Positions 5,817 to 62,714 of a stretch of 64,000 nt of DNA are shown here, piece by piece. The DNA comes from Poseidonia sp. (GTDB lineage: Archaea > Thermoplasmatota > Poseidoniia > Poseidoniales > Poseidoniaceae), in assembly GCA_038124565.1 (NCBI GenBank), contig JAYPCE010000003.1, positions 5,910 to 69,909 of the forward strand, read 5' to 3'. Every line of letters starts with the position of its first letter. The stretch's first letter is position 1. The notes beneath the pieces are model-generated. The model was given only the letters and a program-made list of their open reading frames with translations. It had not been told where the DNA came from and searched no databases. The translations under genes were made by a program, and so were the position numbers.

Positions 5817-5839
5817 CCTTCCAAATTCCAACAATTTTG

Positions 5840-5850
5840 ATATATTATAC
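5840..5850 (+). promoter_or_regulatory. Putative TATA box (atatattata) ~20-26 nt upstream of ATG 5867 of protein B
   Basis: AT-rich box in the short gap between paralogs A and B; implies B has its own promoter and a leaderless mRNA. Confidence 0.4.
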
Positions 5851-5866
5851 GTTATTGTCGCTGTGC

Positions 5867-8800
5867 ATGGTTCGCCTTCAAGCGGTCAGCATCATCTGCT
5901 TTCTGCTCCTGCAAACGGCGGTTCTACCCACGGCTGGAGCAGTGGATGCAGACGGCGATGGCATTGACGATGCATTGGATGACTGCCCCCACGCATCGGG
6001 CGATTCCACGGTGGATCGTCAAGGCTGCCCCGACAAAGACGGTGATGGGCGTTCGGACCTCAACGATGCATGGACTTCACGGTACCCAAGTTTCTCTCTT
6101 GATGCAACACTCACCGCGACGACCGATGTGTTTGATGCAGCCTATTCTCCTACGGGCGAGTTCGTTGCCATTCGTGAAAATCAATATGTGAAAATCTACA
6201 ACGTTTCTACCCAAACGTTGCTCCAGACCAGCGCTCAAATTTCGAGTTCGTGGTGGGGCAACCGCTTATCTTGGAGTCCCGATGGCACCATGCTCGCGGC
6301 CTCCATTTCCTCAGGCGTCAACATTTACTGGACCTCAAACCTCACCGAAATCCAAACGGCCATTGCCCCCACTGACCCAGGAACCGTGCGCGATGTGGCG
6401 TTTTTTCCCAATGGCAGCGGCTTCATTGCAGTAGGAGAAGGGTGGGGGTCCAACAGTGGGAAGGTCTACGCAGCCAATGCGGTGAACGGTACGATCTGGC
6501 ATTCCTTCCAACCCAACAACGAGTCGTCCTTCTCCTCCGTCGCCCTCTCTCCCGATGGAAGCCGTGCTGCAGTTGGCGGAGATGGCGTCGTTTATGTCAT
6601 CAACACCTCTTCGTGGCAGGTGACCCGAACCATCAACCATGGCTCACAAAATGTAAGGGGCGTGGATATTTCTCCCGACGGGAATTGGATCAGTGCCTGC
6701 GATGATACGGGGCTTGCCTACCAAAGCACAGTTCTTCGGGTCTGGGGCTTGGACAACGGGACCCAAGTCATGGCCAAAACCGGGACTTCCCGATGCAGCG
6801 AGACCCGGTTCTCACCTGATGGAAGTCAAGTAGGGTATTCCTTCCACTTTTACACCGATGACGCTGCATCGGTGACCATCTATCACATCAACTCGAATTC
6901 ATTGGTGACCCGCCTGAGTGCTCGGCCCACAGGCGACCCATGCACCGACACAACTGCGCCCCCGAATGTATGTGGGAGAATGTACGGGTTTGACTGGCAC
7001 CCCAACGGGTTGGACATTATCTCGGTGATGGGGCAAGACAACGAAGGCGTGTATTTCTGGTCGTCCAATTTGGACCCCGACAACGACGGGTGGAACACCT
7101 CCGACCAAGGGGACGGCAGAGTGGATGCCTTCCCCGATGAATCAACCCAATGGAACGACACAGATAGCGACGGGTACGGTGATAACCCTTCGCCAGCCTT
7201 CCAACCCGATGCTTGTCCGTCTGTTCAAGGAAATTCAACCGAGGACAGGTTTGGTTGTCCAGATGGCGATGGTGACGGTTGGTCGGATGCAGGCGACTGG
7301 GCGCCCAACGATGCTTTGCAGTGGCTTGACACTGATGGGGACGGTCATGGAGACAACTACCACTTTGAATTGGACGCCTATCAATTCCATCTCAACCAGA
7401 CCGGCGATGCCTTCCCCAACGATCCAACCCAGTGGAACGATACTGATGGTGACGGCTACGGGGATAACTTTGCGAATGCATCATGGACAACATACAGACC
7501 CGTAACATGGCCAGGAGAGTGGCTGAGCGTCGCTGTCATGCCAGATACTTTCCCCCTTGACCGTACGCAATGGAACGATACTGACGGAGATTGGTACGGT
7601 GACAACCAATTTGGCTCTCGTGTGGATGCGTGCCCTACCGAATGGGGCGATTCAGAAGTGGACCGCTTGGGTTGCAAGGATAGCGATGGGGACGGCTATT
7701 CTGACCCGACGATGGATTGGCCGGCTACCACAGATTGCTACGGGGCCGATGCTTTCCAAAACGATGCCACGCAGTGGTGTGATGAGGACAACGATGGGTT
7801 TGGTAGCAACCCCAACGGCAACACGCCCGATGATTGCCCGTCAACGGCAGGAACATCAACGATTGACCGATATGGTTGCGCAGACCGTGACGGCGATGGA
7901 TATTCCAACGCAGGTGACCCATTTCCCGATGACCCCACTCAATGGTCGGACCGAGACGGTGACAACCGCGGGGATAATGCCAGCGGAAACAACCCCGACG
8001 CTTTCCCTGACGACACCTCGCAATGGAAGGACAGCGACGATGATGGCTACGGAGACAACCCAGGAGGGACCAACGGAGACACATACCCAAATGACCCGAC
8101 CCAATGGAGCGATACAGACGGTGATGGATACGGCGACAATCCAAACGGAACTGAGGGCGATGTGTGTCCACTCGAATACGGCGAATCCTTTGATGAAGAC
8201 ACCCGGGGTTGTCCCGACAGCGATCTTGACGGTGTGACCGACCCGTTGGACGTGTTTCCCGATGACCCGTTCCAATGGGCCGATGCTGACGGTGATGGGT
8301 ACGGTGACAACACGAACGTACCGAGTGGTGATGCATGTGTTGAGGTCTTTGGGACCTCGACTGAAGCCGGTCGTTTAGGGTGTCCCGATAGCGATGTTGA
8401 CGGATATGCTGACCTTGATGATGCGTTCCCTAACGATCCTGAACAGTGGACGGACACCGATGGCGATGGTTACGGTGACAATTACTTCTGGGAAAACACC
8501 ACTGTAGAAGACAGCGAAAACCCTGGAATGTACATCACCCTGCGTGACCAGCGCGGTGACGCCTTCCCAGAGATCGCTACCCAATGGTCCGACATGGATG
8601 GTGACGGTTGGGGCGATAACGACAACAGCTCCAACCGAGTAGATAACTTCCCGCTCCGCGCTTCGCAATGGCTTGATTTTGACGGAGATGGGTACGGTGA
8701 CAATGCCGTGATGGGCGCCTATCAACCGGACGCTTGTCCGCTCGTTCCTGGGACATCGGTCACTGGTCTTGATGCGGTTTACTTCGGGTGTCCCGATGCT

Positions 8801-9268
8801 GATAACGACGGCGTTTCCGATGATGCAGACCAGTGCCCTTGGGACCCTATGTACGCCACCTTGGCTGACAAAGCGAAGTGCACCATTCTCTCCGACCCGA
8901 CCTTGATGTCAAACGAAGAATATGCAGATGACTTGGCCGGTGGCGGTAACTTGCTCCTGTACGTTGGCGGCATCATTGCGTTCTTGCTGGCCCTGAACAT
9001 CGTCGCCCAAGTCTCGCGGGCGGCTGGGGCGCGAAAAGCGGTCGCCACACGCGAAGAAGAAGAACGACTGAAAGCAGAAGCAAACGATGAGGAAGAGCGA
9101 CGCCAAGCATGGATTCAACATTATATCAGCCAAGGGAACTTTGCTGAAGCCAGAGCGCTAGGTTGGGAAGGTACCGAGGGGTTGCCTGAGTGGAAACACT
9201 ATGAAATGCAGCAACAAGAAGCCCAAGAAGCATCCATTCCTCAGATGTTTGACCTCGATAATCTGTGA
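5867..9268 (+). CDS. Large Ca-binding surface protein B (tandem paralog of A; ORF track start 5738 overlaps A, ATG 5867 MVRLQAVSIICFLLL... preferred)
   Basis: Same architecture as A. Propeller region is divergent (~30-35% identity by eye). Repeat stalk ~75% identical with a 50-aa block identical to A. TM LLLYVGGIIAFLLALNIVAQV and tail ...RRQAWIQHYISQGNFAEARALGWEGTEGLPEWKHYEMQQQ. Confidence 0.9.
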   Translation: MVRLQAVSIICFLLLQTAVLPTAGAVDADGDGIDDALDDCPHASGDSTVDRQGCPDKDGDGRSDLNDAWTSRYPSFSLDATLTATTDVFDAAYSPTGEFVAIRENQYVKIYNVSTQTLLQTSAQISSSWWGNRLSWSPDGTMLAASISSGVNIYWTSNLTEIQTAIAPTDPGTVRDVAFFPNGSGFIAVGEGWGSNSGKVYAANAVNGTIWHSFQPNNESSFSSVALSPDGSRAAVGGDGVVYVINTSSWQVTRTINHGSQNVRGVDISPDGNWISACDDTGLAYQSTVLRVWGLDNGTQVMAKTGTSRCSETRFSPDGSQVGYSFHFYTDDAASVTIYHINSNSLVTRLSARPTGDPCTDTTAPPNVCGRMYGFDWHPNGLDIISVMGQDNEGVYFWSSNLDPDNDGWNTSDQGDGRVDAFPDESTQWNDTDSDGYGDNPSPAFQPDACPSVQGNSTEDRFGCPDGDGDGWSDAGDWAPNDALQWLDTDGDGHGDNYHFELDAYQFHLNQTGDAFPNDPTQWNDTDGDGYGDNFANASWTTYRPVTWPGEWLSVAVMPDTFPLDRTQWNDTDGDWYGDNQFGSRVDACPTEWGDSEVDRLGCKDSDGDGYSDPTMDWPATTDCYGADAFQNDATQWCDEDNDGFGSNPNGNTPDDCPSTAGTSTIDRYGCADRDGDGYSNAGDPFPDDPTQWSDRDGDNRGDNASGNNPDAFPDDTSQWKDSDDDGYGDNPGGTNGDTYPNDPTQWSDTDGDGYGDNPNGTEGDVCPLEYGESFDEDTRGCPDSDLDGVTDPLDVFPDDPFQWADADGDGYGDNTNVPSGDACVEVFGTSTEAGRLGCPDSDVDGYADLDDAFPNDPEQWTDTDGDGYGDNYFWENTTVEDSENPGMYITLRDQRGDAFPEIATQWSDMDGDGWGDNDNSSNRVDNFPLRASQWLDFDGDGYGDNAVMGAYQPDACPLVPGTSVTGLDAVYFGCPDADNDGVSDDADQCPWDPMYATLADKAKCTILSDPTLMSNEEYADDLAGGGNLLLYVGGIIAFLLALNIVAQVSRAAGARKAVATREEEERLKAEANDEEERRQAWIQHYISQGNFAEARALGWEGTEGLPEWKHYEMQQQEAQEASIPQMFDLDNL
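7066..8850 (+). repeat. Coding tandem array of TSP3-like Ca-binding repeats in protein B
   Basis: As for protein A; antisense ORF artefacts 7725..8336, 7856..8275, 8047..8457, 8375..8725. Confidence 0.85.
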
Positions 9269-17584: not shown

Positions 17585-18619
17585 ATGAGTGATTCATCCC
17601 GCCGGAACCGAGGCTCCCATAATGGGCGTCGGTCAGGGCGAAGGTACGGGGGGCCGAAGCGCTCGACGCTGGAGGAGCGCTCGGCATCAGAAGTACGCCG
17701 TATGGAGGGAAAGGCTGAGCGGCGGTTTGATGCTCGCCCGCGGCCGATGGCCATTCCACATGACCATGAAGATCCGCAGACATTCCATCTTGAATGGGCG
17801 GTCAGCCCGGTACCGTTGAAAACCGAAGAGAACGTGGCCGAGTGGGTTGTTAAACGCGGTGAATACGGTTGGTTGACCGATGAACGGGTGGACGACATCG
17901 CCGACCGCGTGCGTGGCGAATCCATGACCCTCGAACAAGCCTTGTCCCTTCGTTCAGCCTTGCTACAACAAAAAACGGTGTACTCGCACCACCGTTTGAA
18001 GTCCCTCGGCAAAGAACTTGCTCGCAAATACCGAGCGGGGACCTCCGTTCTGGAACTTTCCAACGAATACGACTTTTCGCCGATGAACCTGTTCCGTGTC
18101 ATCTTGGAATCCATGGGTTGGTCAAAGACCAAAATCAAGGAAAGCCTTCGAAACCCGACGTCGATGAAAGAACGCGAACTTCGTGAGTTTGAAGCCGCTG
18201 AAGCAGCCGACCGCGTGGCCAGTGTGGACCAGTCAGAAACGCAAGTTAAAGCGGATTTATTTGAAGACATACTCGCTGATTGGTTCCTTGACCAAGGCAT
18301 TCGTCTACGCCGGCAACCCGAGATGGTCAAGGAGCAATCCGAAGCCTTGGGAAGACCCGTCCGTACGCCCGACCTCCTGTTTTTGGACCATGTGTACATC
18401 AATGGCCATCCGGTTGCTTGGATTGATGCCAAGCATTTCTATGGTGCAGATGTTGACTTTCAACGCAAGAAAATGAAGAAACAAATGAATCGTTACATCG
18501 AGGAATGGGGCAGCGGTGCCATTATGTTCCGACATGGTTTTTGCGAGAATTTGTTTTTACCAGGTGTTCAAATGCTTGACTCGGGCCCCATTGACCTTTC
18601 AAAACTCAACGAGGACTGA
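17585..18619 (+). CDS. CDIN1/C15orf41-like protein (TPD-motif family): N-terminal HTH-like region and C-terminal PD-(D/E)xK nuclease-like domain; start uncertain
   Basis: Signature VRTPDLLFLDHVYINGHPVAWIDAKHFYG, i.e. TPD motif providing the PD followed by I-D-A-K as (D/E)xK, at the position expected for the C15orf41 family. Basic N-terminus. The opposite-strand ORF 17542..18432 is low-complexity R/S-rich and rejected. Confidence 0.55.
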   Translation: MSDSSRRNRGSHNGRRSGRRYGGPKRSTLEERSASEVRRMEGKAERRFDARPRPMAIPHDHEDPQTFHLEWAVSPVPLKTEENVAEWVVKRGEYGWLTDERVDDIADRVRGESMTLEQALSLRSALLQQKTVYSHHRLKSLGKELARKYRAGTSVLELSNEYDFSPMNLFRVILESMGWSKTKIKESLRNPTSMKERELREFEAAEAADRVASVDQSETQVKADLFEDILADWFLDQGIRLRRQPEMVKEQSEALGRPVRTPDLLFLDHVYINGHPVAWIDAKHFYGADVDFQRKKMKKQMNRYIEEWGSGAIMFRHGFCENLFLPGVQMLDSGPIDLSKLNED

Positions 18620-36879: not shown

Positions 36880-36990
36880 AATAGAACCACAAACACGGCT
36901 AAAATTGCATTTTTATGCAAGATGAATAGTTTATTATTCATATTCAATAATTGCAAAAACCGTAGGAAAGAGAAGCATTCAAGCACCAAT
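36880..36990. promoter_or_regulatory. AT-rich divergent promoter region between ribD (-) and the lipid-kinase gene (+)
   Basis: Only strongly AT-rich stretch in the window (aaaattgcatttttatgcaagatgaatagtttattattcatattcaataattgcaaaaac) with several TATA-like boxes. Confidence 0.5.
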
Positions 36991-39571: not shown

Positions 39572-39657
39572 TGGCGCAGTCGGAGAGATTCGAACTCCCG
39601 AGTCACGGGGACACCGGATTTCAAATCCGGCGCAATACCAGGCTATGCGACGACTGC
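39572..39657 (-). tRNA. tRNA-Ser (anticodon UGA), class II with long variable arm, 3' CCA genomically encoded
   Basis: Manual fold: acceptor GCAGTCG/CGACTGC, 3-bp D stem, anticodon stem CCGGA/TCCGG with loop TTTGAAA (U33, anticodon TGA, A37), variable arm ~14 nt, T-arm GGGAG-TTCGAAT-CTCTC, discriminator G, CCA. Confidence 0.9.
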
Positions 39658-46799: not shown

Positions 46800-47317
46800 G
46801 TGCATCGTTTCATGGGCCTGGCCGAGGTTCATCAAATGCAGAGGAACGCTGGCATAAAGCAGCACAGGCCTTGTCTCAAGCAAGGCAGCGAAATCGAGAT
46901 GCCGATGCCGCGGTGTTGGTAGAGGGTCGCAAGGACCGAACGGCTCTGGAACGGCTGGGGTTCACCGGTCCAATAGAAGTGCTCAACCGAGGATGGCCCG
47001 TGGACGATGTGTTGGTGCATCTTGTGGAGCACTACGGCCGAACCAGTGAGGTGGACAACGGCCCAAGTCTTGTGTTGTTGATGGATTGGGACCGAACGGG
47101 TGGAAGGCTGCAAGCGCAATGTCGTCGAAATCTTGAGTCCCTTGATGTTCGTTTTGATGAATCCTTACGGTCAACCTTGGTCGTTTGCCTGAAGCCAGAA
47201 ACTCGGGTGGTGGAGGGCTTGTCTGGCTTGGCAGAAGTGTTACGTCCGCTCGTTGACCTTTACGATCCGATGCCACCCAGCGAAGTCAACCCAGCGAGGG
47301 AAACGCGTCTTCCTTGA
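46796..47317 (+). CDS. Toprim-domain protein (COG1658 small primase-like / RNase M5-like)
   Basis: AVLVEGRKDRTALERLGF (Toprim E-x-x-x-D…) and later LLMDWDRTGG (DxD); 4-nt ATGA overlap with DUF167 gene. Confidence 0.6.
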   Translation: MSASFHGPGRGSSNAEERWHKAAQALSQARQRNRDADAAVLVEGRKDRTALERLGFTGPIEVLNRGWPVDDVLVHLVEHYGRTSEVDNGPSLVLLMDWDRTGGRLQAQCRRNLESLDVRFDESLRSTLVVCLKPETRVVEGLSGLAEVLRPLVDLYDPMPPSEVNPARETRLP

Positions 47318-47735
47318 CCGTGTTGAGCACCACATGGGTATAGGAGCGTGCGACTCCATCAAGGGTGAACACGGTTTTGGTGAGGTTGTCGAGGTCGTCT
47401 CGGTCCTTGACCCGGGCGAGAACGATGGAATCCCAATCCCCCGTGACATCGTAAACGGCAAACACACGGGGGTCGGCGGCGATTTTTTGCTGAACATCGA
47501 TCATCCGCCCTTTGACAATTCTCAATCCCGCCATAATGGTCATGTTCCAGCCAAGGTGTTCGGGATTGAGGTCCACGCGATACCCTTCAATCACGCCCTC
47601 TTCTTCCAGTCTTCGCAGGCGATTGGTCACCGTTCCTTGAGCAAGGCCGAGCGTTCGGGCCAGTTGTCGATGACTGGCTCTGGCGTCTTCCTTCAACAAC
47701 TTCAACAAGGCGACATCGGTGTCGTCTAAGTCCAT
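47286..47735 (-). CDS. lrp: Lrp/AsnC family transcriptional regulator
   Basis: N-terminal HTH LDDTDVALLKLLKEDARASHRQLARTLGLAQGTVTNRLRRLEEEGVI + C-terminal RAM domain. Confidence 0.9.
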   Translation of the reverse strand: MDLDDTDVALLKLLKEDARASHRQLARTLGLAQGTVTNRLRRLEEEGVIEGYRVDLNPEHLGWNMTIMAGLRIVKGRMIDVQQKIAADPRVFAVYDVTGDWDSIVLARVKDRDDLDNLTKTVFTLDGVARSYTHVVLNTVKEDAFPSLG

Positions 47736-52778: not shown

Positions 52779-53672
52779 TCATTCTTCTTCCAAGACCTCA
52801 TCCTGTGCCGTCAAATCAACGAATGGAATGTCTTCTTCATCGAGCAACACCGAGAGTTCCTTCGTAGATTGTCCGGTTGGGCCTTGCGGCCACTCGGCGA
52901 GGCTCGTACCAGAGGAAAACCGTTCACTCGGCGCTTCGATGGTTGGCGAATCCAGGGCGGGGTCAAGATGAATCAACGCAGCTTCTATACGAGCAAGGGC
53001 TCGTTCAACGCCTGGGGCATTGTCTTCAGCCTGTGCCTTCCATGCCATGTCGGTATCCTCTGCAATGGCGTCAAGCCAAGGCTTGTGATGCTCAGCGTCC
53101 TCCAACCGTGCTTCAATTTCTTGCTTGCGCAGAAGGATACGCTGAATGGTTTCGCTAAGATGGTCTCTGGCTACCGCTCGTAAATCGTTCCACAACTGCT
53201 CGTTTTCTTTCAATGAGAGGCCAGGGTGATGTCTGTCAAGGTATCGCTGTGCACGGCGGACATGAGCCAATTCCCACGGTGATTGGCCCAACGAACTCGC
53301 CACATCCAACACCAAGCGTGCTCTGCTTTGAAGGGGTCCGGTCAACGTGATGACGTTCAAGTACCCCGAAGTCAGCAATCCAGCGCCCCAGTACGGATAG
53401 GATTCAATGCGAACCTCGAGTTCACTGCTCGTCGTTTCCAACACCCATCGCTGCTCGTTGTATCCGGGCGGCGCTGAAAAAAAAGGCGTTTCAGGGTGCG
53501 CTAAATGGGCCAGCACGGCTTGCGCGACATCTCCAAGGTACACCGTTGTGGACGGTCCCTGAAAGTGACGGCTTCTTAACAATCGATTGGTGGTGTCCAT
53601 TTTGTGTGATGCTTTGGCTTTGCGAACCTGTGCTACCAACACAGAAACGCGGGCATCGAGCACCTCGTCCAT
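52779..53672 (-). CDS. Hypothetical protein (ORF track start 53720; ATG 53672 MDEVLDARV preferred, TGATG overlap with upstream gene)
   Basis: Soluble, helical C-terminal half; no motifs recognised; operonic with the ATP-grasp gene. Confidence 0.5.
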   Translation of the reverse strand: MDEVLDARVSVLVAQVRKAKASHKMDTTNRLLRSRHFQGPSTTVYLGDVAQAVLAHLAHPETPFFSAPPGYNEQRWVLETTSSELEVRIESYPYWGAGLLTSGYLNVITLTGPLQSRARLVLDVASSLGQSPWELAHVRRAQRYLDRHHPGLSLKENEQLWNDLRAVARDHLSETIQRILLRKQEIEARLEDAEHHKPWLDAIAEDTDMAWKAQAEDNAPGVERALARIEAALIHLDPALDSPTIEAPSERFSSGTSLAEWPQGPTGQSTKELSVLLDEEDIPFVDLTAQDEVLEEE

Positions 53673-54658
53673 CACAACCCCTCTTCGCCAGCCCACAAAC
53701 GTCCACCCAATTCCTCCCATTCAAGCGATTGCGGATGGCATGAATTGTGGTAATTGGTAAATTCTCCAAACACCCATTCCCCATTGACCAAAAACATGTC
53801 AACACGGGTGTAGTCAATGTCTTCCGCCCACTGCTCTGCCGTAGCGATCAGCGATGACCGTTGTTCGGGCGTCAGCAAGCCGTCCAGCGTGGCGGGAAGG
53901 GGACCTTGATTCCATCGTGGATTGGTTTGTTCTATCCGCACACCATCGAGGTCGTAAATGGCTTGGCAGTGGTCACCCAATCGACCGATGTCGTATTGGA
54001 TGAATCCAGCTTTTCCATGAAACACATGTACCTTCCAATCGTGGGGAAGCGTGTTGTTGTCCAGCAACAACTCCTCGACCATGATGCCCCGAGGTTGGAT
54101 GTTGGCAGCACCCCATTCAAGGGGAACGGGAAACACGTTTTTGAGGCACTTCTTCAAGGTGCGTTCAATTCGCCATTTCGGCCAAGGTATGCCGTACTGG
54201 TCCAAACCATTTCGTACGACTCGGTAACCGTTCTTATGCCTCGCCCAGGGGCGAAAAACCCGGTTTGAATCAGCCAACGGCTCTGGACCGTTGTCCATAA
54301 TGAACAGGGCTTCGCCAGACCAATGATTGGTTTTGATGACGCAACGGGCGGGCAGGTTCTTCCATGGCAGTTTTGTGCTCGTCGTTGACCAATGAAACAA
54401 AGTTGTGAGCCGACCTCCACCTTTTTCCTCTACAAGACGACGAGAACGGTATTTGTCTTCCATTTCAATCAACAATGGATTGCGGTCGTTGATGCATCGG
54501 TGGAGTTGTCGTTGACTAAAATGGTGAGAAATTGAATCGTCGAGCCGATGCCATGGTTGGGTGCCACCAGGCAACAGGTCCTCCATGAACGGTGCAGGGC
54601 GCCTCTGCTCAAGAAGAAACCGCCTGTTGAGGTCTAGCGGCAGAAGAGGAAGGTTCAA
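53672..54658 (-). CDS. TupA-like ATP-grasp family protein (glycan/polysaccharide modification-associated)
   Basis: …RCVIKTNHWSGEALF…WKVHVFHGKAGFIQYDIGR…IYDLDG…EFTNYH matches the ATPgrasp_TupA pattern. Confidence 0.5.
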   Translation of the reverse strand: MNLPLLPLDLNRRFLLEQRRPAPFMEDLLPGGTQPWHRLDDSISHHFSQRQLHRCINDRNPLLIEMEDKYRSRRLVEEKGGGRLTTLFHWSTTSTKLPWKNLPARCVIKTNHWSGEALFIMDNGPEPLADSNRVFRPWARHKNGYRVVRNGLDQYGIPWPKWRIERTLKKCLKNVFPVPLEWGAANIQPRGIMVEELLLDNNTLPHDWKVHVFHGKAGFIQYDIGRLGDHCQAIYDLDGVRIEQTNPRWNQGPLPATLDGLLTPEQRSSLIATAEQWAEDIDYTRVDMFLVNGEWVFGEFTNYHNSCHPQSLEWEELGGRLWAGEEGL

Positions 54659-54692
54659 GTTAGGGCAGATTCAACAGCCATTTGGCGATACC

Positions 54693-55229
54693 ATGGCAGG
54701 AAAAGACAAACCCTCCGACCTAACCTCTTTGCCCGGCGTTGGTGCGGCAACCGCCAAAAAATTGGCGGCAGCGAAGTACTCTACGGCGGCAGCGATTGCA
54801 AAAGCAAGCGTGAAAGATCTCCAAAACGCAGGCCTTACCGCAGCCGTTGCGAAGAAGGTTCACGCTGCTGCTAAAGCAGCTTCAACCACCAAGGCCGCCG
54901 TGAAGAACACCGCTTCAAAGGGCGCCACGGCCGCTAAGAAGACAGCCTCAAAGGGCGCCTCGGCCGCCAAGGAGGCGGCAACCAAAAGCACGGCAGCCGC
55001 CAAGAAAGCAAGTACCAAGGCAAAGGCAGGGGCGTCAAAGGCCGCCGCCGCATCCAAGAGTACAGCGGCCAAGGCGGTTGCGAAAGGCCAAGATGTTGCC
55101 GAAGAAGTGGTTGAGAAAACCAAAGCGGCAGCCAAACCACTCTCCACCAAAAAGGAAGACGACCGGAAAGGTTCAACCATTAAGGTTCCAAGGTCGGTCA
55201 AAGACATGCCTTGGTTCAAGAAAGGGTGA
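54693..55229 (+). CDS. Basic Ala/Lys-rich DNA-binding protein with N-terminal helix-hairpin-helix (bacterial histone-H1/HU-tail-like)
   Basis: HhH LTSLPGVGAATAKKLAAAKYST then ~120 aa of AKKA/AAKA low-complexity repeats; ends KDMPWFKKG. ORF track start 54561; ATG 54693 preferred. Confidence 0.6.
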   Translation: MAGKDKPSDLTSLPGVGAATAKKLAAAKYSTAAAIAKASVKDLQNAGLTAAVAKKVHAAAKAASTTKAAVKNTASKGATAAKKTASKGASAAKEAATKSTAAAKKASTKAKAGASKAAAASKSTAAKAVAKGQDVAEEVVEKTKAAAKPLSTKKEDDRKGSTIKVPRSVKDMPWFKKG

Positions 55230-55449
55230 ATTGACCGTTAGGATTGAAGGCTGCCTAGGTTACATGGCAGGCATGCCAAGGCGAAAGTATGGTCGCCTCC
55301 GAAAAACAGTGGAGGAGCCTCCTAAGGGAAATTGCTCACGCTGCAGGTCTGGTAAGCACTGCCCGATTGAAGGCCATCAAGGACGAGGCGTTCATCCCCA
55401 TCGGCAATGGACAGGCCCCGAGCAGGTGGAGAAGCGGAAAAAATCAATC

Positions 55450-56544
55450 TCATAATTCCACGATGCCGTGGGTGCTGGACGACGGAGTGGTCTCCTCGAC
55501 AGGTACTACTTCATGCGGCATTTCGTCCATATCGTCGCGCAACGATTGTGCTCGATGGTACACTTCACGCAGCGTTTGGTCGGAAATTTCGAGGTACACG
55601 CGTGTGGTTGCAATGGTAGCATGCCCCATCAACCGTTGAATGGTAACCAAATCAGCACCACGCTCAAGCAGACCTGTTGCAAAGTTATGCCGAAGGACGT
55701 GCGGTGTTAGTTTTCCTTTAGGAAGACCGGCTTGTTCCTCCAACGCATCCATCATCCGCTGAATGCCCCTTGGTTGCAAACGCCGCCCACGTCGGTTGAC
55801 AAAACACGGCCCGCCTTCACTGGCACCGATGGATTCACGGATAGGCAACCAAGCCTCAAGTCCTGCAATCGTGCGTTTCGTGAACAGCACCAATCGGTCT
55901 TTGTCACCCTTTCCACCAAGAATGCGAGCCGAACCGTCATCAAAATCAATGTCTTCGAGGTTCAGGTCACAAATTTCACTGACTCGCATCCCGGTGTCGA
56001 GCATCATCGTTACCACCAACGCCACAGCCGGGTCTTCACTCAGGCTCGCCGCTTCAAGAACCGTGGTGAGTTCCCGTTTGGTTAGCGTTCTTGGAAGGCG
56101 TTTTCCCGTTCGGGCTCGTTGCAAGTGGTCAGGCCATATCCACCCCAGCCATTTGATGAAATGCCGGGCTGCTGCGATGCGAGCGTTGTAGGTGGTTGGC
56201 CGCAATCCAGCGATGCTGTGGGCCCACAGGTCCACTCTTCCGTTCATGGGCTCCATGCGTTTTGCAAGTTCTTCAATCGTCATTGATTCGTATGCGTCGT
56301 CATCCAAGACTGTTTCACCTGGCAGGATGGTTTCCACGAACGGTTTGAGACCGTAGAAGTATGACTTCTGTGTGTTTTCAGATTTGTTTTCTGATTGAAG
56401 TTGGCGGCGATAACACGCTATCCAAGGGAGATGGCGCAGATGAACAAGCCGAGCCGGCAGGTGCAATTCATCGTCCTCAACCAAGCGGCGTTGGCTTGGC
56501 CGCCTCGCCTGTGGTTGTGGCGTTCGCATCTCTCGTTTTTCCAT
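55450..56544 (-). CDS. xerA: Tyrosine recombinase XerA/XerCD family (start uncertain)
   Basis: Catalytic R…HxxR…Y: …ARILGGKGDKDRLV…TPHVLRHNFATGLLERGADLVTIQRLMGHATIATTRVYLEI; N-terminal core-binding domain. Confidence 0.9.
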   Translation of the reverse strand: MEKREMRTPQPQARRPSQRRLVEDDELHLPARLVHLRHLPWIACYRRQLQSENKSENTQKSYFYGLKPFVETILPGETVLDDDAYESMTIEELAKRMEPMNGRVDLWAHSIAGLRPTTYNARIAAARHFIKWLGWIWPDHLQRARTGKRLPRTLTKRELTTVLEAASLSEDPAVALVVTMMLDTGMRVSEICDLNLEDIDFDDGSARILGGKGDKDRLVLFTKRTIAGLEAWLPIRESIGASEGGPCFVNRRGRRLQPRGIQRMMDALEEQAGLPKGKLTPHVLRHNFATGLLERGADLVTIQRLMGHATIATTRVYLEISDQTLREVYHRAQSLRDDMDEMPHEVVPVEETTPSSSTHGIVEL

Positions 56545-56737
56545 TTGGCGTCACCGCCTCCCGCCGAAGCGGGCGTGCATCCCATGTCCCTGAGGACAGG
56601 TGGACAAGCGTGACCGTGTTTATCAAGCCATCGTCAAAGAGGATGAAAGGAAGGTGGGGGACTCCGACTGCGCCTTGGCGCCGAAGGAATCGTTGTACAA
56701 CTCAGAGAGCTGGAAGAAGATCAGGAAGTGGCAGCAC

Positions 56738-57004
56738 TCAGAGGTGCTCGATGCCGGTCTTCTTGACGTTGGCCTTCTTAATCTGGTCTGGGAGCCAAGC
56801 AGGGCCGCCAGCAGGCTTAGGGACCATCGAAATGCTGCCTGTGAAGCAGTGGACACGCTTGGTGCCACGCTCTCGTAGGCGGATGTTCGTGTGTCCGCGC
56901 GTTGCGGCCTTCAAGGCTGCACCGCGGGGTTGCTTGCTCGCAAATACCTGGCTCGTGTCTTTTCCGTTCTCCATGAGAACGAAGTATTTCTTTCCGTCTG
57001 ACAT
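56738..57004 (-). CDS. Archaeal non-histone chromosomal protein MC1
   Basis: 88 aa; …FASKQPRGAALKAATRGHTNIRLRERGTKRVHCFTG…PKPAGGPAWLPDQIKKANVKKTGIEHL matches the MC1 family end-to-end. SD GGAGGT 8 nt upstream and TATA-like element further upstream. Confidence 0.85.
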   Translation of the reverse strand: MSDGKKYFVLMENGKDTSQVFASKQPRGAALKAATRGHTNIRLRERGTKRVHCFTGSISMVPKPAGGPAWLPDQIKKANVKKTGIEHL

Positions 57005-57038
57005 TTGGATTACCTCCGAGGTGGCCTTAAGCCATTGA

Positions 57039-57046
57039 GCATATAA
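57039..57046 (-). promoter_or_regulatory. Putative TATA box (cattatatgc on coding strand) ~40 nt upstream of MC1 ATG
   Basis: TTATAT-type box in the 146-bp intergenic region; SD-like ggaggt at 57011-57016. Confidence 0.35.
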
Positions 57047-57150
57047 TGTTTTTCCCGAAAAAAGGCAATACTGCGCCCCATATGGCGCTCAGTCACCCTT
57101 TCCGAAGGCCAAAAATCCGACCATTCTGCCGCAGTATCACGGTTTCAAAC

Positions 57151-57387
57151 TCAGTCCAAATCCGCTCCAGCGAGGGTCTTGGTATTGACCACACCTTCAA
57201 CCGAACGAATGTGTTCAACAACGGCTTTGGCGATGGTCGCCAAATCATCGGCTTCTAATTTGACAATCAAATCATGGTCGCCAAACAACACTGTGGCATC
57301 ACACACATAAGGAAGGGATTTCACATCGTTGTAGACTTGCTGTTCGGTGCCGGGCTGAACATTGATGAGGACGTATCCGATGGCCAT
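57151..57387 (-). CDS. Stand-alone RAM (Lrp/AsnC C-terminal ligand-binding) domain protein (ORF track start 57486)
   Basis: MAIGYVLINVQPGTEQQVYNDVKSLPYVCDATVLFGDHDLIVKLEADDL…VEGVVNTKTL is a typical AsnC_trans_reg domain without HTH. Confidence 0.7.
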   Translation of the reverse strand: MAIGYVLINVQPGTEQQVYNDVKSLPYVCDATVLFGDHDLIVKLEADDLATIAKAVVEHIRSVEGVVNTKTLAGADLD

Positions 57388-57419
57388 GGGACTCAACCTT
57401 CCCAGCGTGTCTGACCACA

Positions 57420-60400
57420 TCACCCTTGCGCTTCTTGGTGATGCTTCGCCAAGGCTTCGCGGTGTTCGGCGACATAGGTTGCCCATTGGTCTTCAGTCCA
57501 GCCTTCGGGCACAGGTCCACCCAACCATTCCTCATAGGCAACCAAGGTCCATCCTTCTGGTACAAATGAGGGGAGATCGGCGGGAAGTGGCGAATCAAAC
57601 GATGTGCCAGCGCTGTCTTGTTCAAACAGGTCTTCAAGCGAAGCGAGTTCCAATGCATCGCTCGCACCCCACGCCGTCTCTTCTGAGGCTGTCTTTCTCA
57701 AACGCAGCACGACGGCACTCAAGGTGACGATTAGGAAGGCTGCTACAGCACTCACTTTCAGAATGGCAGATTGGGTGTTTGTGTTCTGTACCGGCGTTTG
57801 GTCGTTCAGAGTGTTGTCGACACAGGTCGTGCAAGCGAGGGCAGGGCCCACCATCATCTCGTCTTCGTATGCGAAGCTTTGCTGGAGGTCATCCACGCAG
57901 TTGATGGTGTAATTCAGCGTGGTGTTCGCTAGTGACCGCGGAATTGGATACTGCCAGGAGAGTTCATTGACAAACACACCTTCGGGGCCAGCCATCATCG
58001 TCGATTGGCTGAGCATGTCACCATCTTCGTTGTAAAGCGCGTAGGCACAAATCACTCGGTCCAATCCATCAAGGTCTGATAGGGTCACGTTGGTGAACAG
58101 GTCTTCTTCGGGGAGGGGCGTTGATACTTCGATGGAAACAAACTCGGTGGGTGCGTGCTGGAACATGAGGTCCAGCGAGGCAGATTTCACAAGTCCATCA
58201 ATGTCCGATACAGAAAAAACTGCCTTTCCCGGGCCGTCAAGCATTGAATTGTCCAGTTTCAGCCGATAGGTTCTCCACACCACATCATCGGATGTGCCTG
58301 CACTCCAATTGCAGGCTTCAGGAGGTTGTCCCTCCGGCCACAACAACATGTCGGTTGAAGGAGCATTGATCGCCCAGCCCTGCTGTGTCAGTTGAGAACT
58401 CTCACCCTCCAACGGTCGGTCGCTGGCCACTCCAACCATGAGGATGGCTATTTGGCCGAAGGTCATGGTGTCAACCGCCCCTTCGGCATCGCAGGCTTCT
58501 ATGAAGAGAATTTCTGGGGGGGTTAACAAAAACGGGACGTTGAGTTGAGCGATGGTTGCCCCACCATGCTTACCGATACCCGACGCTTCAATGAACAACT
58601 CTCCGGCTTCCAACGGCACATTCAGTTGGTCGAGCCTGACCAATGTGCTGTTTTGACCTGCTTGAATGTCGAGCGGGACTTGAAGTGTTTCACCGCCCGG
58701 CCACTGCACCATGACATCTCCAACGAACGATGTGCCTGGGTCATCCACATCCACCACATCAATTCGCAACACTTCCTCGCCATTTCCGACCACCCTATCC
58801 AAAACGGTTCCTAAAGACGATTCCACTTGTATGTGCAATTGTGGCGGCATGTCGGCCACTCGGATGGTCCTCTGAAGAAGCAAGGAGCCCGTGGAGGAGC
58901 GCAATTCGAACACCGCATCTTGCAGTGAACCCCCAACCTCTAAGGAAAACGGAGCGGTGTAACAGTAGAGGTGCGTTGCAGATTGGGAAACATAGGTTAC
59001 ATTCCCGACAGTTCCACGTGAGGCGAGGAAAAAGGGCGTTTCTTCTTCGACGCGATAGTCAACATCCAAGACGCAAGCCGTGAGTTGAGATTCTTGGTGC
59101 CGGTACAATCCGGTGGCGGGGCGGTTCGGGAGGTTGGAGGCGTTGTTCCATCCAGCATCGTCCACGCCTTTGACATGCGGTCCAAACCACGTCGGTGGGG
59201 AATCCACCACCCTCGTCACGTTGGGGTACATGATGCGTTGACTCATGTTGCTGGCGTCGCGAACGGTGGCACGTAGCGTAATCCAGCCCAAGGAGGCGTT
59301 TGAAGGAACAACGAGACTCGCTTCCCAAGTTTCGGTGTTGATTTGACCGAGGGTGATGAGCGACCAGTTGTCGGGGGACAAACTTTGGTTTTCGGAAACA
59401 ATCTGCCATTCCAGCGAGGCGCTCGTGACATTGACATCATCGGTGGCCTTCACTGAGCAGATGGTGTAGGCACCTCTGGTGATGGCAGAAGCGCTGCAGT
59501 AGACTTCGTCAATGCTTGGGGGAGCGTTGACAACAACGCTGAACGGGAACAAGTTGTTGGCAAAGTTCCGTTCAGGCGTGCTGTTGTCGTAGCGGATGCG
59601 CAAATCCAGATACCCGTCCGAAGTTGGAACGACGGACATATTCACCAAGGTTCGGCTGCCGGCCTGGTCACCTGCAGGAAGAACGAGGTTGGTTTGGTTA
59701 AGGACGGAGTTGCCAAGTACAGTCTGCACCAACAAGGTGCCGTTGGATTGTGACATCCCGGTGTTTTCAACGAGGATTTGGATGGTCGCAGGTTCTCCAA
59801 GGTTCATGTTGCCGAGAACCCGCACATCAACGATGTTGATGTCATGGAACATGTCGGCGTAGGGGGCCATCTTTGGGTCACCGACCACCACACCCATCCA
59901 CCCCGAGATTCGGTTGGCCGCAGCGTGACTTTCTGCCAAATTGTATCCAGATGCATAGATTGGAAGATACATGCTGGGCAGCCCCACAGCTGTGAGGTAG
60001 GGTTCGTACACGTAGCCCTTCACGCCTGAAACGCCGTCTTCAAGCAGGTCGGCCACCAAGGATTGGCCGTAACTGGTCCCCCAATTGAACGAACGCCCTC
60101 CTGTTGAGACGGCGGTATCGGCAATGGAGCCGTTGACCCAATCCATGTGAGGGCGAATGGCCCGAATCAACACCGTGTCGATGTAGAATGCACCGGATGT
60201 TGATGTTGAAGCGATATCCAAAGGCACCCGGACCTTGAATTGTGTGGCCTGAGCGTCGGGGCGGAAGCGAAGGAATTGAGACGCCCAAGTGGTGGTGAAC
60301 GTTCGGTCGTTTGAGGTATTGGTCGATAGCACCGTACCGTTGCTGTCCAAGGCCGTAACCTCCAGGGCAAACGCACCATCCACTTCGCCCACACGCTTGC

Positions 60401-62714
60401 CGTACACATAGGCCATCCATGCATGGCCGGTCAAGTCAGCAGGAAGGGTGAAGGTCGTCTCAAGATGGGCGACATCAAGGCCTGAGCCAGAGTATGACGT
60501 GCAATTGTCGATGATGGTGCGTCGCAGCGAAGTAATATCTTGGTCGTCAAGGGCTGCATTCCATACCAAGACTTCATCGATCATGCCTTCAAAATACGCA
60601 CTACCCGCCCGGTTTACGCCCAATTTGTAGAGGTCGATGTTGTTGAATGAACCGTTGGGATAGGTGTTGGTGCCCACCAAAACACCGTCCATGTATTGGC
60701 GAATGTCTCCGTCGTCAAAAACCGACACCAGGTGCGTCCATCGTTGAGGAATCACATTGCCAAAGGGTTGGGTTTGGTTATTGTGCAGGCGCCATTGTCC
60801 GCTGGACACCATGTGTTGGAACGAGAGGTTTGAGCCCGCTTGGTCATCAATGGCGAAGGTCGCGGCGTAGGTGGTTTGGTTGGAGGTATTGGCCCATACC
60901 CATTGACTCACGGTGAGGTTTCCTGCCCAGTCGTTGACGTCGACCTTGGCTTGGTCGTTCACTCCGTCAAACCACAAACACGAACCGTCAACGCAGTTGT
61001 ACCAATTGCTGGCGTTCATGCCGTAGAGGGTGAGGTTGGCACTTCCGTTGACACTGTCGTTAGCTTTGCTTCCAGCACCGTCTTCAAAGGCCCAGTGATG
61101 AATCAAACGGCTTGATTGTGGTACAAGGTCGCTTGATACATAGAAGGCCGAAGCAGGGACCGCTGCTTTGCTGGTGTTCGGGCCCTGCCACGAGAAGATA
61201 AGACCGTGCGGGCCACCACCTTGGAAAAACTCAATCCGGAAATCATGAAGCCCCGAACTCAAATTGACGAAACCTGAACGCTCAGTCATACCATGGGAGC
61301 CGTGATTTTGAACCAAACTTGCTCCATCAAGCCACAGTTCAGAACCGTCATCTGAATTGATGAAAAATGTCCAATTGCCCGAGTAAGGGATGTCGATTAA
61401 TCCACTGAATCTAGCGCCCCAATCTTGCTTGAAGCGGTTGTCCAAGCCTGTGTAAGCGTTGTTGGATGCACCGTGATTGAGGTTTGGCTCAATCTGGACA
61501 CGGTCAGGAATGCGGTCAATGAGCGTGGGCATAGGCGACGTGGTGATGCTGAGGCCTGCGTTGTCAAAATACTCACCATAGATGCCTTGCATCATATCGC
61601 CGGCGTCTTGCTCACAAGCAGTCAAAACACTCGCTTCAAACGCCCCGTTTCCACCTTGTTTTTCTGTCGTCTGATAGGTCCACGCAAAGTCGTCCTCCGG
61701 CGCAACAATTGGGCCGCTGTGCGTCCAATATCTCGACCCACTCTGCCATGTTGCATCCAAGGTGTCAAACCCGCTATTGGGCAGGGAATTGGCATACCAA
61801 TTTCCGTCGTTGCTGCCCCATGAAGCGTACCCCATCACATTGGAGACATTGGTGAGGAACGGCGTATCTTCGTCAAACAACACGGGCAACCCCATGCTGC
61901 CGTTGAGGGTGGTGTTAGCGGTGTACAAGTTATCATTCCAGAACTTGTAGCCCGAGCCGTTTCGATTGGTGGCGAGGTCGAGTACAAAGGTCCCACGTTG
62001 ACCGAGACTTTGGTTGGCGCGTTCAATCAATTCAAGGGCTGTGTCAACGGTGTAACCTGTCAATCGGGTGACCAAAAAGAATCCGTATTTGTTGCGCGTA
62101 AAGGATTCCATCGGCTTGCCAGCCAAGGGACCGTAGTCATGATTAAACCAGTAATTGGCGCCGATTGAACTGTTGTAAGAGCCACCCAGCAACGCCAATT
62201 CTTGGTCAAAACTAGCTTTGTCGTTTCCTCCAGAGACCCGAAGTGGAATGCCTTTGGTTGTGACGAGGTAGTTCAACTGGTTGGAGGATGACCTGTTTTG
62301 CAACATTTCAAGGAAGGGGAGAGCGAAGTAGGTGTTGAATTGATTCCTGTTGATGGTTTCTGCGGTTGGTGTTCCGCTTTCGTTGAACAGGAATACCCTG
62401 TCCAGCGAGATGTTCCGAGCGGCTACAAAGGCCCATCCAATGGTTCGGCTCTCAGCAGAGAGGTTGTTGATCAAGACCCCTACATCTGAATAATCGATGA
62501 GGCTATCGTAGGAGAAACCGTCCGGAACGGCCACGGTTGGCCAAGGTGTTTGGTTCCAAACATCTTCAGAACCACCAACCAGAAAACCCTCAAACATTCG
62601 GTGTTCAAGGAGTTCAACCCACTCTTCTTGGCTTGGTTGGTCCGAGAAGGTCATGGGGACGATTGAAAGCAACAGGAGGACCACGAAAGCGACACTGCTC
62701 CGCTTCGTGGACAT
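57420..62714 (-). CDS. Giant (1764 aa) glycosylation-site-rich surface protein with PA14 domain, LamG/concanavalin-like domain, further beta-rich domains, C-terminal TM anchor and Trp-rich acidic cytoplasmic tail
   Basis: Signal MSTKRSSVAFVVLLLLSIVPMTFS. PA14 region …GIYGEYFDNAGL…SGNWTFFINSDDGSELWLDG…HDFRIEFFQGGGPHGLIFSWQGP…. LamG region …LWFDGVNDQAKV…RWTHLVSVFDDGDIRQYMDGVLVG…FEGMIDEVLVWNAAL…. TM AVAAFLIVTLSAVVL; tail …PEGWTLVAYEEWLGGPVPEGWTEDQWATYVAEHREALAKHHQEAQG. Very many N-x-S/T sequons. Confidence 0.9.
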   Translation of the reverse strand: MSTKRSSVAFVVLLLLSIVPMTFSDQPSQEEWVELLEHRMFEGFLVGGSEDVWNQTPWPTVAVPDGFSYDSLIDYSDVGVLINNLSAESRTIGWAFVAARNISLDRVFLFNESGTPTAETINRNQFNTYFALPFLEMLQNRSSSNQLNYLVTTKGIPLRVSGGNDKASFDQELALLGGSYNSSIGANYWFNHDYGPLAGKPMESFTRNKYGFFLVTRLTGYTVDTALELIERANQSLGQRGTFVLDLATNRNGSGYKFWNDNLYTANTTLNGSMGLPVLFDEDTPFLTNVSNVMGYASWGSNDGNWYANSLPNSGFDTLDATWQSGSRYWTHSGPIVAPEDDFAWTYQTTEKQGGNGAFEASVLTACEQDAGDMMQGIYGEYFDNAGLSITTSPMPTLIDRIPDRVQIEPNLNHGASNNAYTGLDNRFKQDWGARFSGLIDIPYSGNWTFFINSDDGSELWLDGASLVQNHGSHGMTERSGFVNLSSGLHDFRIEFFQGGGPHGLIFSWQGPNTSKAAVPASAFYVSSDLVPQSSRLIHHWAFEDGAGSKANDSVNGSANLTLYGMNASNWYNCVDGSCLWFDGVNDQAKVDVNDWAGNLTVSQWVWANTSNQTTYAATFAIDDQAGSNLSFQHMVSSGQWRLHNNQTQPFGNVIPQRWTHLVSVFDDGDIRQYMDGVLVGTNTYPNGSFNNIDLYKLGVNRAGSAYFEGMIDEVLVWNAALDDQDITSLRRTIIDNCTSYSGSGLDVAHLETTFTLPADLTGHAWMAYVYGKRVGEVDGAFALEVTALDSNGTVLSTNTSNDRTFTTTWASQFLRFRPDAQATQFKVRVPLDIASTSTSGAFYIDTVLIRAIRPHMDWVNGSIADTAVSTGGRSFNWGTSYGQSLVADLLEDGVSGVKGYVYEPYLTAVGLPSMYLPIYASGYNLAESHAAANRISGWMGVVVGDPKMAPYADMFHDINIVDVRVLGNMNLGEPATIQILVENTGMSQSNGTLLVQTVLGNSVLNQTNLVLPAGDQAGSRTLVNMSVVPTSDGYLDLRIRYDNSTPERNFANNLFPFSVVVNAPPSIDEVYCSASAITRGAYTICSVKATDDVNVTSASLEWQIVSENQSLSPDNWSLITLGQINTETWEASLVVPSNASLGWITLRATVRDASNMSQRIMYPNVTRVVDSPPTWFGPHVKGVDDAGWNNASNLPNRPATGLYRHQESQLTACVLDVDYRVEEETPFFLASRGTVGNVTYVSQSATHLYCYTAPFSLEVGGSLQDAVFELRSSTGSLLLQRTIRVADMPPQLHIQVESSLGTVLDRVVGNGEEVLRIDVVDVDDPGTSFVGDVMVQWPGGETLQVPLDIQAGQNSTLVRLDQLNVPLEAGELFIEASGIGKHGGATIAQLNVPFLLTPPEILFIEACDAEGAVDTMTFGQIAILMVGVASDRPLEGESSQLTQQGWAINAPSTDMLLWPEGQPPEACNWSAGTSDDVVWRTYRLKLDNSMLDGPGKAVFSVSDIDGLVKSASLDLMFQHAPTEFVSIEVSTPLPEEDLFTNVTLSDLDGLDRVICAYALYNEDGDMLSQSTMMAGPEGVFVNELSWQYPIPRSLANTTLNYTINCVDDLQQSFAYEDEMMVGPALACTTCVDNTLNDQTPVQNTNTQSAILKVSAVAAFLIVTLSAVVLRLRKTASEETAWGASDALELASLEDLFEQDSAGTSFDSPLPADLPSFVPEGWTLVAYEEWLGGPVPEGWTEDQWATYVAEHREALAKHHQEAQG

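Follow-up and report, generated by a model that had tools for sequence, protein, structure and literature searches.

The 64-kb window analysed here (64,000 nucleotides of contig JAYPCE010000003.1, assembly GCA_038124565.1) comes from a Poseidonia species of Marine Group II (MG-II), which is among the most abundant uncultivated archaeal groups of the surface ocean. At 54693–57387 it contains a gene for a basic, Ala/Lys-rich (AK-rich) helix-hairpin-helix (HhH) protein (54693–55229, + strand; 178 aa), a gene for a small predicted zinc protein that we call Zn60 (55273–55455, + strand; 60 aa), xerA for a XerA-type tyrosine recombinase (55450–56544, − strand; 364 aa), and genes for the chromosomal protein MC1 (56738–57004, − strand; 88 aa) and for a stand-alone RAM domain (57151–57387, − strand; 78 aa). 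An initial annotation, made from the sequence only, had listed all of these except Zn60. We checked its four gene calls by hidden Markov model and solved-structure searches, and the matches confirmed them together with their coordinates and strands.

For comparison, 80 related loci were collected in a one-genome-per-species search, almost all of them from Poseidonia, Poseidoniaceae or Poseidoniales. Wherever enough sequence was available, xerA followed the AK-rich gene (68 of 68 loci), and tblastn located Zn60 in 66 of these 68. This order, with the AK-rich gene and Zn60 running toward a convergent xerA, is referred to as module A; it is also kept in divergent lineages. The Sec61beta gene and a hypothetical gene upstream are conserved equally to module A, and the neighbourhood that recurs across the Poseidoniales comprises RsmB-F, Sec61beta, a hypothetical protein, the AK-rich protein and xerA. 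An excerpt from the gene table of a Thalassarchaeaceae metagenome-assembled genome (MAG) shows a matching order, i.e., RibD, YegS, COX, AsnC, NOL1/NOP2, Sec61beta, hypothetical, XerA and RimK; in this excerpt the AK-rich gene is not called, and the gap of 280 nt between the hypothetical gene and XerA is too short for one. Module B consists of the RAM gene followed by MC1. It adjoins xerA in 27 of 63 loci, at which XerA identity is 74–85% and several of which stem from MAGs listed as genus M, that is, the Poseidonia genus. At the remaining 36 loci, the place of MC1 and RAM is taken by the gene of a RimK-type ligase or by different genes. Distant MC1 genes have a 77-residue RAM gene directly upstream in the same orientation, in unrelated surroundings where the neighbours are Macro, Hjc and succinate-dehydrogenase-type (FAD_binding_2, Fer2_3) genes or TctA and DUF58 genes. 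As the RAM–MC1 pairing is kept in such unrelated contexts, it is a conserved pair separate from module A, and the juxtaposition of the two modules is specific to the Poseidonia genus.

Elsewhere the window encodes leucyl-tRNA synthetase, RNA polymerase subunit D, ribosomal proteins S4 and S13, the large subunit DP2 of DNA polymerase PolD, the large primase subunit, cytochrome oxidase (COX) and RibD. From this housekeeping content it follows that the window is core chromosome, and the cumulative GC skew rises steadily over the 64 kb with no inversion. We hence read 54693–57387, with a probability of about 0.7, as ordinary core chromosome of Poseidonia (MG-IIa) in which two separately conserved modules lie side by side. 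The initial annotation had interpreted the four genes as a functional chromatin and recombination island, in which an H1-like protein and MC1 make up a composite chromatin and Xer marks either a dif/terminus-like locus or a domesticated integrase. In its favour, the four genes do lie together in the window as well as at 27 related loci, and DNA binding is plausible for both basic proteins. Synteny, however, already contradicts the island. MC1 and RAM are absent beside xerA in more than half of the loci (36 of 63) and keep their pairing elsewhere, travelling independently of xerA, and the region as a whole is core synteny common to several families. The H1-like family test failed as well, and neither a dif-like repeat in the stretch nor a skew inversion over the 64 kb was found. 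We thus consider this explanation very improbable, the least probable of those weighed here; the underlying observation was right in substance, with the corrections given below, whereas the interpretation as an H1-like, dif-proximal island was largely wrong.

In module B, the identity of MC1 (pI 10.45) was upheld by the profile PF05854, which it matches with 89.3 bits against a cut-off of 23 (E = 2e-25; residues 5–88 on profile positions 2–95/96). Against the solved MC1 of Methanosarcina thermophila (1t23/2khl) residues 6–88 align with E = 7.5e-17, and among 424 homologues the best 120 are 73–95% identical. The match to the M. thermophila protein is full-length and the PAW(M/L)P loop is retained; both proteins are small, basic and have their own strong promoter. 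In contrast to its relative, MC1 of the window is five residues shorter owing to a deletion in one loop, and in MG-II a stand-alone RAM gene always precedes the MC1 gene. The initial annotation had also assigned MC1 its own TATA box and Shine-Dalgarno sequence. In agreement with this, the BRE/TATA element GAAAAACATTATATG (57040–57054, − strand) and the GGAGG of the Shine-Dalgarno sequence GGAGGT (57012–57017, − strand) are essentially invariant in 13 aligned loci, and the core of these expression signals is kept in distant lineages. Upstream of the promoter, the alignments revealed further elements at 57069–57107 (− strand), namely CTTCGGAAAG and ACTG..CATATG..GGCGCAGTA followed by a T-run, which are candidates for a regulator site and/or the terminator of the RAM gene. 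The left arm of the palindrome varies without compensation, so that a hairpin is unsupported here.

Between the MC1 stop codon and the xerA promoter we also noted a conserved 10-bp palindrome, GTTGTACAAC (56692–56701, − strand), and after it a hairpin (56659–56691, − strand) that has no Rfam match and whose arms appear to change in a compensating manner between loci. Together, palindrome and hairpin (56659–56701) may represent a small RNA or else the 3′ end or terminator of MC1.

That MG-II have an MC1-based, histone-free chromatin has been published before: the Diaforarchaea lost histones and Alba at their root, most MG-II encode MC1, and its presence there was reported as a probable horizontal acquisition (Hocher 2022, PMC7613761). 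MC1 is highly transcribed in Poseidoniaceae, with MC1b in the top 5% of transcribed genes in one MAG (Damashek 2021, PMC9723583). The composite non-histone chromatin proposed for this locus therefore agrees with the literature as far as its non-histone nature is concerned, but not in its H1-like component. In this lineage MC1 is the main nucleoid protein known, presumably driven by its own strong BRE/TATA promoter.

The second protein of module B is an acidic (pI 4.4) Lrp/AsnC ligand-binding domain. In line with the earlier assignment as a small RAM-domain protein, it matches PF01037 with 41.8 bits against a cut-off of 25 over residues 6–71 of 78 and has no helix-turn-helix (HTH). Its best solved relatives are the stand-alone RAM proteins 2zbc, 2e1a and 2cvi ('demi-FFRP'), which align over the full length, belong to the same length class (75–83 aa) and likewise lack an HTH. 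What sets it apart from other stand-alone RAM proteins is the fixed linkage with MC1 in MG-II, where orthologues of 77 aa with 60–62% identity are found directly upstream of MC1 in other genomic contexts. A longer, 111-aa reading of the gene was discarded, since it runs into the neighbouring gene and the residues that it adds lack conservation. With 78 aa the protein probably cannot bind DNA alone, and most likely it would sense a small molecule as the partner of full-length Lrp/AsnC regulators. A regulator of this type (HTH and RAM, 149 aa) is encoded at 47286–47735 (− strand), 9.5 kb from the RAM gene, and is a possible hetero-oligomer partner. The fixed position of RAM upstream of MC1 suggests co-inheritance or co-regulation. 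The pairing hints at a possible coupling of the main chromatin protein's expression to a metabolite sensor; against such a regulatory tie, the linkage could reflect simple co-inheritance.

In module A, xerA encodes a recombinase which, like stand-alone RAM proteins, is of a well-known kind. The product matches Pfam Phage_integrase (E = 4.8e-37), and its best solved relatives are the XerA proteins of Thermoplasma acidophilum (5hxy, 1.7e-38) and Pyrococcus abyssi (4a8e), in agreement with the XerA-type recombinase of the initial annotation. The NCBIfam model recomb_XerA_Arch (NF040815) was the top match with 194 bits, below its equivalog cut-off of 220, and we therefore name the protein XerA-type. 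It shares with 5hxy and 4a8e the catalytic R-K-HxxR-H-Y set, read in the sequence as R187, the lysine in GKGDK (211–215), H282-x-x-R285, H308 and Y317, and like these it is encoded by a conserved and probably single chromosomal gene. It differs from them in being extended at the N-terminus by about 45 residues of basic character, in ending with an acidic tail of about 30, and in having an mRNA whose conserved, structured leader has no counterpart in Rfam. The proposed domestication of an integrase is at odds with the fixed chromosomal position of xerA in all 68 loci and in divergent lineages, with the housekeeping genes flanking it, with XerA as its best match and with its flanks, in which no signs of mobile elements were seen. 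XerA would rather be the chromosomal dimer resolvase, the dif site probably lying elsewhere.

Proximity to a dif or terminus-like site could not be substantiated either. The exact dif core ATAA-N6-TTAT has no match in the 64 kb, and no dif-like inverted repeat turned up near xerA: a seed-based inverted-repeat scan of 52–58 kb returned three short palindromes only, and a custom scan for 11-N(5–8)-11 repeats with at least 9/11 complementarity gave 43 hits, which is at chance level (31–45 in shuffled sequences). One AT-rich inverted repeat at 36921–36942 (ATGAATA-GTTTAT-TATTCAT), in the spacer of the divergent RibD and YegS genes and 18 kb off xerA, has dif-like geometry. Scanning metagenomes for its exact 20-mer yielded 21 low-GC contigs with no adjoining RibD or YegS homologues and no MG-II matches. 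Because these contigs are unrelated, the repeat is probably promoter sequence, and it was rejected as dif. In the Thermococcales dif does not lie beside xerA, a further point against an island marked by Xer; as dif need not adjoin xerA, its absence from the window is expected.

The 193-bp spacer between xerA and MC1 is occupied by a promoter and the conserved structured leader of xerA. A TATA-like box (56619–56626, − strand) is located about 22 nt upstream of the first hairpin. All loci keep it at this distance, as TTGATAAA (the form in the window), TTGATATG or TTCATATG, and it presumably directs xerA transcription. The 5′ leader itself (56545–56598, − strand; about 55 nt) contains three short hairpins, H1 (56586–56597), H2 (56560–56573) and H3 (56548–56559), with the invariant GGGAUGCAC (56575–56583) between the first two, and its structure ends 3 nt before the xerA AUG. 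The leader is conserved in every locus, with or without MC1, and in divergent lineages its layout is kept with different helix sequences. Positions in H1 and H2 pair at 96–100% with two-sided changes at five positions, and the observed covariation score was reached by none of 500 shuffles. When the partners were slid by 1–3 columns, pairing in the leader fell from 88–93% to 24–47%. Moreover, when 1.04 Mb were scanned with a covariance model, each locus had exactly one strong copy, located upstream of xerA in every case. Rfam produced no match at gathering thresholds across the window, and over 54400–57500 only chance-level matches outside the leader (E of at least 1.9).

We also considered the leader as a DNA recombination site. 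Its loops are mostly UNCG or GNRA tetraloops, from which it follows that the element is RNA and not a recombination site; the 4-nt spacers, the covarying helices and the fixed unpaired GGGAUGC led to the same rejection. An upstream open reading frame (ORF) was dismissed as well, for its AUG is conserved, whereas the small ORF varies in frame, length and stop. The simplest guess is that the three-hairpin leader controls the stability or the translation of the xerA mRNA.

Zn60 was missed by the initial annotation. It occupies the apparent 220-bp gap between the AK-rich gene and xerA, and it meets xerA tail to tail with overlapping stop codons. The protein is basic (pI 10.7), and its invariant residues, MPRRKYGRLRK...NCSRCRSGKxCPxxxH, include a C-x2-C-x5-C-x4-H pattern with C21, C24, C30 and H35 as putative ligands of a predicted CCCH zinc site. 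Among 15 loci the gene varies mainly at third codon positions. Searches returned 65 homologues, with named sources almost all from Poseidoniales, and no Pfam, NCBIfam or informative profile match. The family is tiny (15 matches among 1.84 billion representatives), and the AlphaFold model is of low confidence. Distant relatives with the core PRRKYG...KC..C..G+.CP.H were seen outside the MG-II synteny at two loci (L113 and L114; P0267 and P0262), one next to a Usp gene array and the other next to genes for DUF131, a polyprenyl synthase and a geranylgeranyl reductase. The family of this small protein thus extends beyond MG-II, and, as these relatives are not beside xerA, a dedicated link of Zn60 to XerA is weakened.

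The AK-rich protein (pI 10.3; 29% Ala, 20% Lys) consists of an (HhH)2 domain (residues ∼7–61), a stretch of basic 11-residue repeats (∼62–140) and a C-terminal peptide (156–178). It matches Pfam HHH_5 (PF14520) with 39.5 bits against a cut-off of 27 (E = 8e-10). The initial annotation had described one HhH motif followed by AKKA repeats; a basic HhH protein it is, but the HhH portion is a two-motif, five-helix (HhH)2 domain, with its helices at a predicted local distance difference test score (pLDDT) of 82–90 in the AlphaFold model, and the repeat units have 11 residues. By both sequence and fold, the best match of the N-terminus is the N-terminal (HhH)2 domain of RadA/Rad51 (1pzn, 1t4g), on which it superposes with a root-mean-square deviation of ∼1 Å over 52–56 residues at 34–42% identity; RadA models were also the best sequence matches of the protein, with only residues 7–66 aligning. 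In contrast to RadA/Rad51, the AK-rich protein has no RecA-type ATPase core and no Walker motif, in the window or in the related loci, the FxxA polymerisation motif is unmatched, and the (HhH)2 domain leads into the basic repeats, with a C-terminal peptide that is not the one of RadA. Neither the window nor the loci contain a RadA gene for comparison.

Autocorrelation over 58 family members gave peaks at lags of 11 and 22 residues with sub-peaks at 4, 7, 15 and 18, and family lengths step by 11 residues (145, 156, 167 and 178 aa). On the DNA level, Tandem Repeats Finder reported a 33-bp tandem repeat at 54903–54971 (+ strand; 2.1 copies, 86% matches) that encodes the 11-residue unit. Acidic residues are very rare in the repeats, which are basic almost throughout. 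The C-terminal peptide RKGxTIxVPRSVKDMPWFKK, within the last 23 residues, is nearly invariant (pLDDT 72–78), and no other protein of the window ends in a similar peptide. We inspected it as a possible RadA FxxA motif or canonical PIP box; the MG-IIa ending ..KDMPWFKK[GKR] fits neither. The family comprises about 70 clusters, those with source names being from Poseidoniales, with conserved N- and C-termini. Upstream of the gene, GGAAGGTTCAAGTTAGGG (54648–54665, + strand) forms a conserved block in 17 aligned upstream regions and, to judge by its position, may serve as a promoter; a GGTGA Shine-Dalgarno-like sequence is found just before the ATG.

In divergent lineages, the genes in this slot still encode basic A/K-rich proteins of variable form. 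One of these combines the (HhH)2 domain with proline-containing AAPKKK tails and ends in TPSLKDLLKRINK, and another has many 11-mers and ends in SPSLKDMLKRMRK. A third (locus L111, 2651–3460, + strand; 269 aa) has A/K/E-rich repeats without HhH and a different C-terminal domain; its place upstream of Zn60 and xerA suggests rapid turnover of architecture at this position.

The likeness of the AK-rich protein to histone H1-like proteins, on which the initial annotation had built, proved to be compositional only. Burkholderia-type H1-like proteins, the tails of HupB/HU and AlgP are likewise Ala/Lys-rich, strongly basic and of low complexity, and the divergent MG-II members with AAPKKK-type tails resemble bacterial lysine-rich tail proteins. 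The NCBIfam H1-like model hist_H1_lk_Burk (NF038053), however, scored 13.3 bits against a cut-off of 80, and no HU/IHF family was matched in Pfam or NCBIfam at the thresholds used. Unlike the bacterial proteins, the AK-rich protein has an ordered (HhH)2 domain, no HU fold and an 11-residue repeat that in this lineage contains no proline and is not of the short PAKK/AKKA/KPAA tail type. We hence rejected membership in the H1-like or HU families; some public annotations, all from one source, name members of the family 'HU-beta'.

From sequence and structure model, the AK-rich protein is most likely a non-specific binder of double-stranded DNA, predicted to make contact through the RadA-like (HhH)2 domain and the basic 11-residue repeats, and through its nearly invariant C-terminal peptide it probably attaches to a partner or surface. 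This makes it a candidate second nucleoid-associated protein. To our knowledge, MC1 is the only nucleoid protein recognised so far in MG-II, and the AK-rich family might thus provide a concrete second chromatin component for a lineage without histones and Alba. We would rank the nucleoid protein first, an accessory of XerA, segregation or repair second and a membrane-directed protein third. Several points weigh against a general role in chromatin. In the excerpt of the published MG-II metatranscriptome table mentioned above, the AK-rich gene is not called in the MAG, and a high abundance of the protein is an inference. The AlphaFold model is of low confidence in its central part (pLDDT below 50), and (HhH)2 domains can mediate protein contacts, with NusA AR domains among the fold matches. 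In addition, the 11-residue repeats also resemble those of lipid-associated or stress proteins, and the order-wide adjacency to xerA could indicate a specific recombination role instead.

If so, the AK-rich protein, possibly with Zn60, might be a dedicated accessory of XerA or of segregation and repair that delivers or orients DNA for dimer resolution, with its C-terminal peptide binding XerA, PCNA, RadA or the membrane. The gene order of module A with its overlapping stop codons is invariant across the Poseidoniales, the N-terminal domain is closest to that of RadA/Rad51, and a short invariant C-terminal peptide is typical of docking motifs; the divergent C-termini (TPSLKDLL..) would fit amphipathic-helix or PIP-like spacing. 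Archaea also have no FtsK. Yet the genes are convergent and each has its own promoter-like element, and Sec61beta and RsmB-F upstream are equally syntenic, so that the adjacency to xerA may only reflect a stable and compact genome. Distant Zn60-like proteins outside MG-II do not accompany xerA, and the MG-IIa C-terminus conforms neither to FxxA nor to the canonical PIP box. On balance, an accessory function appears unlikely. Slightly less likely still is a stronger form, in which the A/K-rich protein, Zn60 and xerA with its RNA leader make up one functional unit and the small basic proteins position or license dimer resolution by XerA. Were this true, these proteins would fill the role that FtsK has in bacteria and that is vacant in archaea, and the leader RNA would tune xerA expression. 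The leader and the neighbours of xerA may offer handles on the control of Xer recombination in archaea, which takes place without FtsK.

The repeats could alternatively be an array of amphipathic 11-mer helices of the LEA-3, synuclein or apolipoprotein type. The protein would then chiefly provide protection of membranes or against stress, or anchor the nucleoid at the membrane, and not compact chromatin. Such an array would be consistent with the strong 11-residue periodicity and its sub-peaks at 4, 7, 15 and 18, with copy numbers that change in 11-residue steps and with a C-terminal peptide that is basic and aromatic or amphipathic. The repeats, however, are almost purely basic with hardly any acidic residues, no LEA or apolipoprotein family was matched at E ≤ 0.01, and the intact DNA-binding-type (HhH)2 domain is conserved. 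Divergent members moreover exchange the 11-mers for proline-rich AKKP-type tails, which are typical of DNA-binding tails. We therefore regard a helix array as improbable and favour the nucleoid protein as the function of the AK-rich family.

In the literature searched, the AK-rich family, Zn60, the xerA leader and the RAM–MC1 pairing appear undescribed, and no paper on an HhH protein in MG-II was found. The textbook picture is unchanged, and the new items are modest but real additions for an ecologically important uncultivated lineage.

Around the two modules, further features of the window deserve mention. A TupA-like ATP-grasp gene (53672–54658, − strand) is located between the hypothetical gene (313 aa) and the AK-rich gene. 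Only a few related loci carry it (L001, L004, L005, L014 and L017), two retain no more than a short fragment (L002 and L003), and the others lack it; given this patchy occurrence, it has the appearance of a variable insertion into a gene order that is fixed otherwise. On the other side, a predicted surface protein of 1764 aa with PA14 and LamG-type domains (57420–62714, − strand) abuts the RAM gene. It co-occurs with MC1 and RAM beside xerA in Poseidonia loci, with an identity of only 37–66%.

Further away, ARAGORN called an 80-nt tRNA-Gly(GCC) at 17968–18047 (− strand) inside a 296-aa ORF. The call is unconfirmed, as the Rfam tRNA model at its gathering score found only the tRNA-Ser at 39575–39657. 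Near the start of the window, two adjacent WD40 beta-propeller proteins of ∼1150 aa each (2370–9268, + strand) follow the gene of a STAND/AAA_16 NTPase (689–2452, − strand), an unusual trio in a streamlined archaeal genome.

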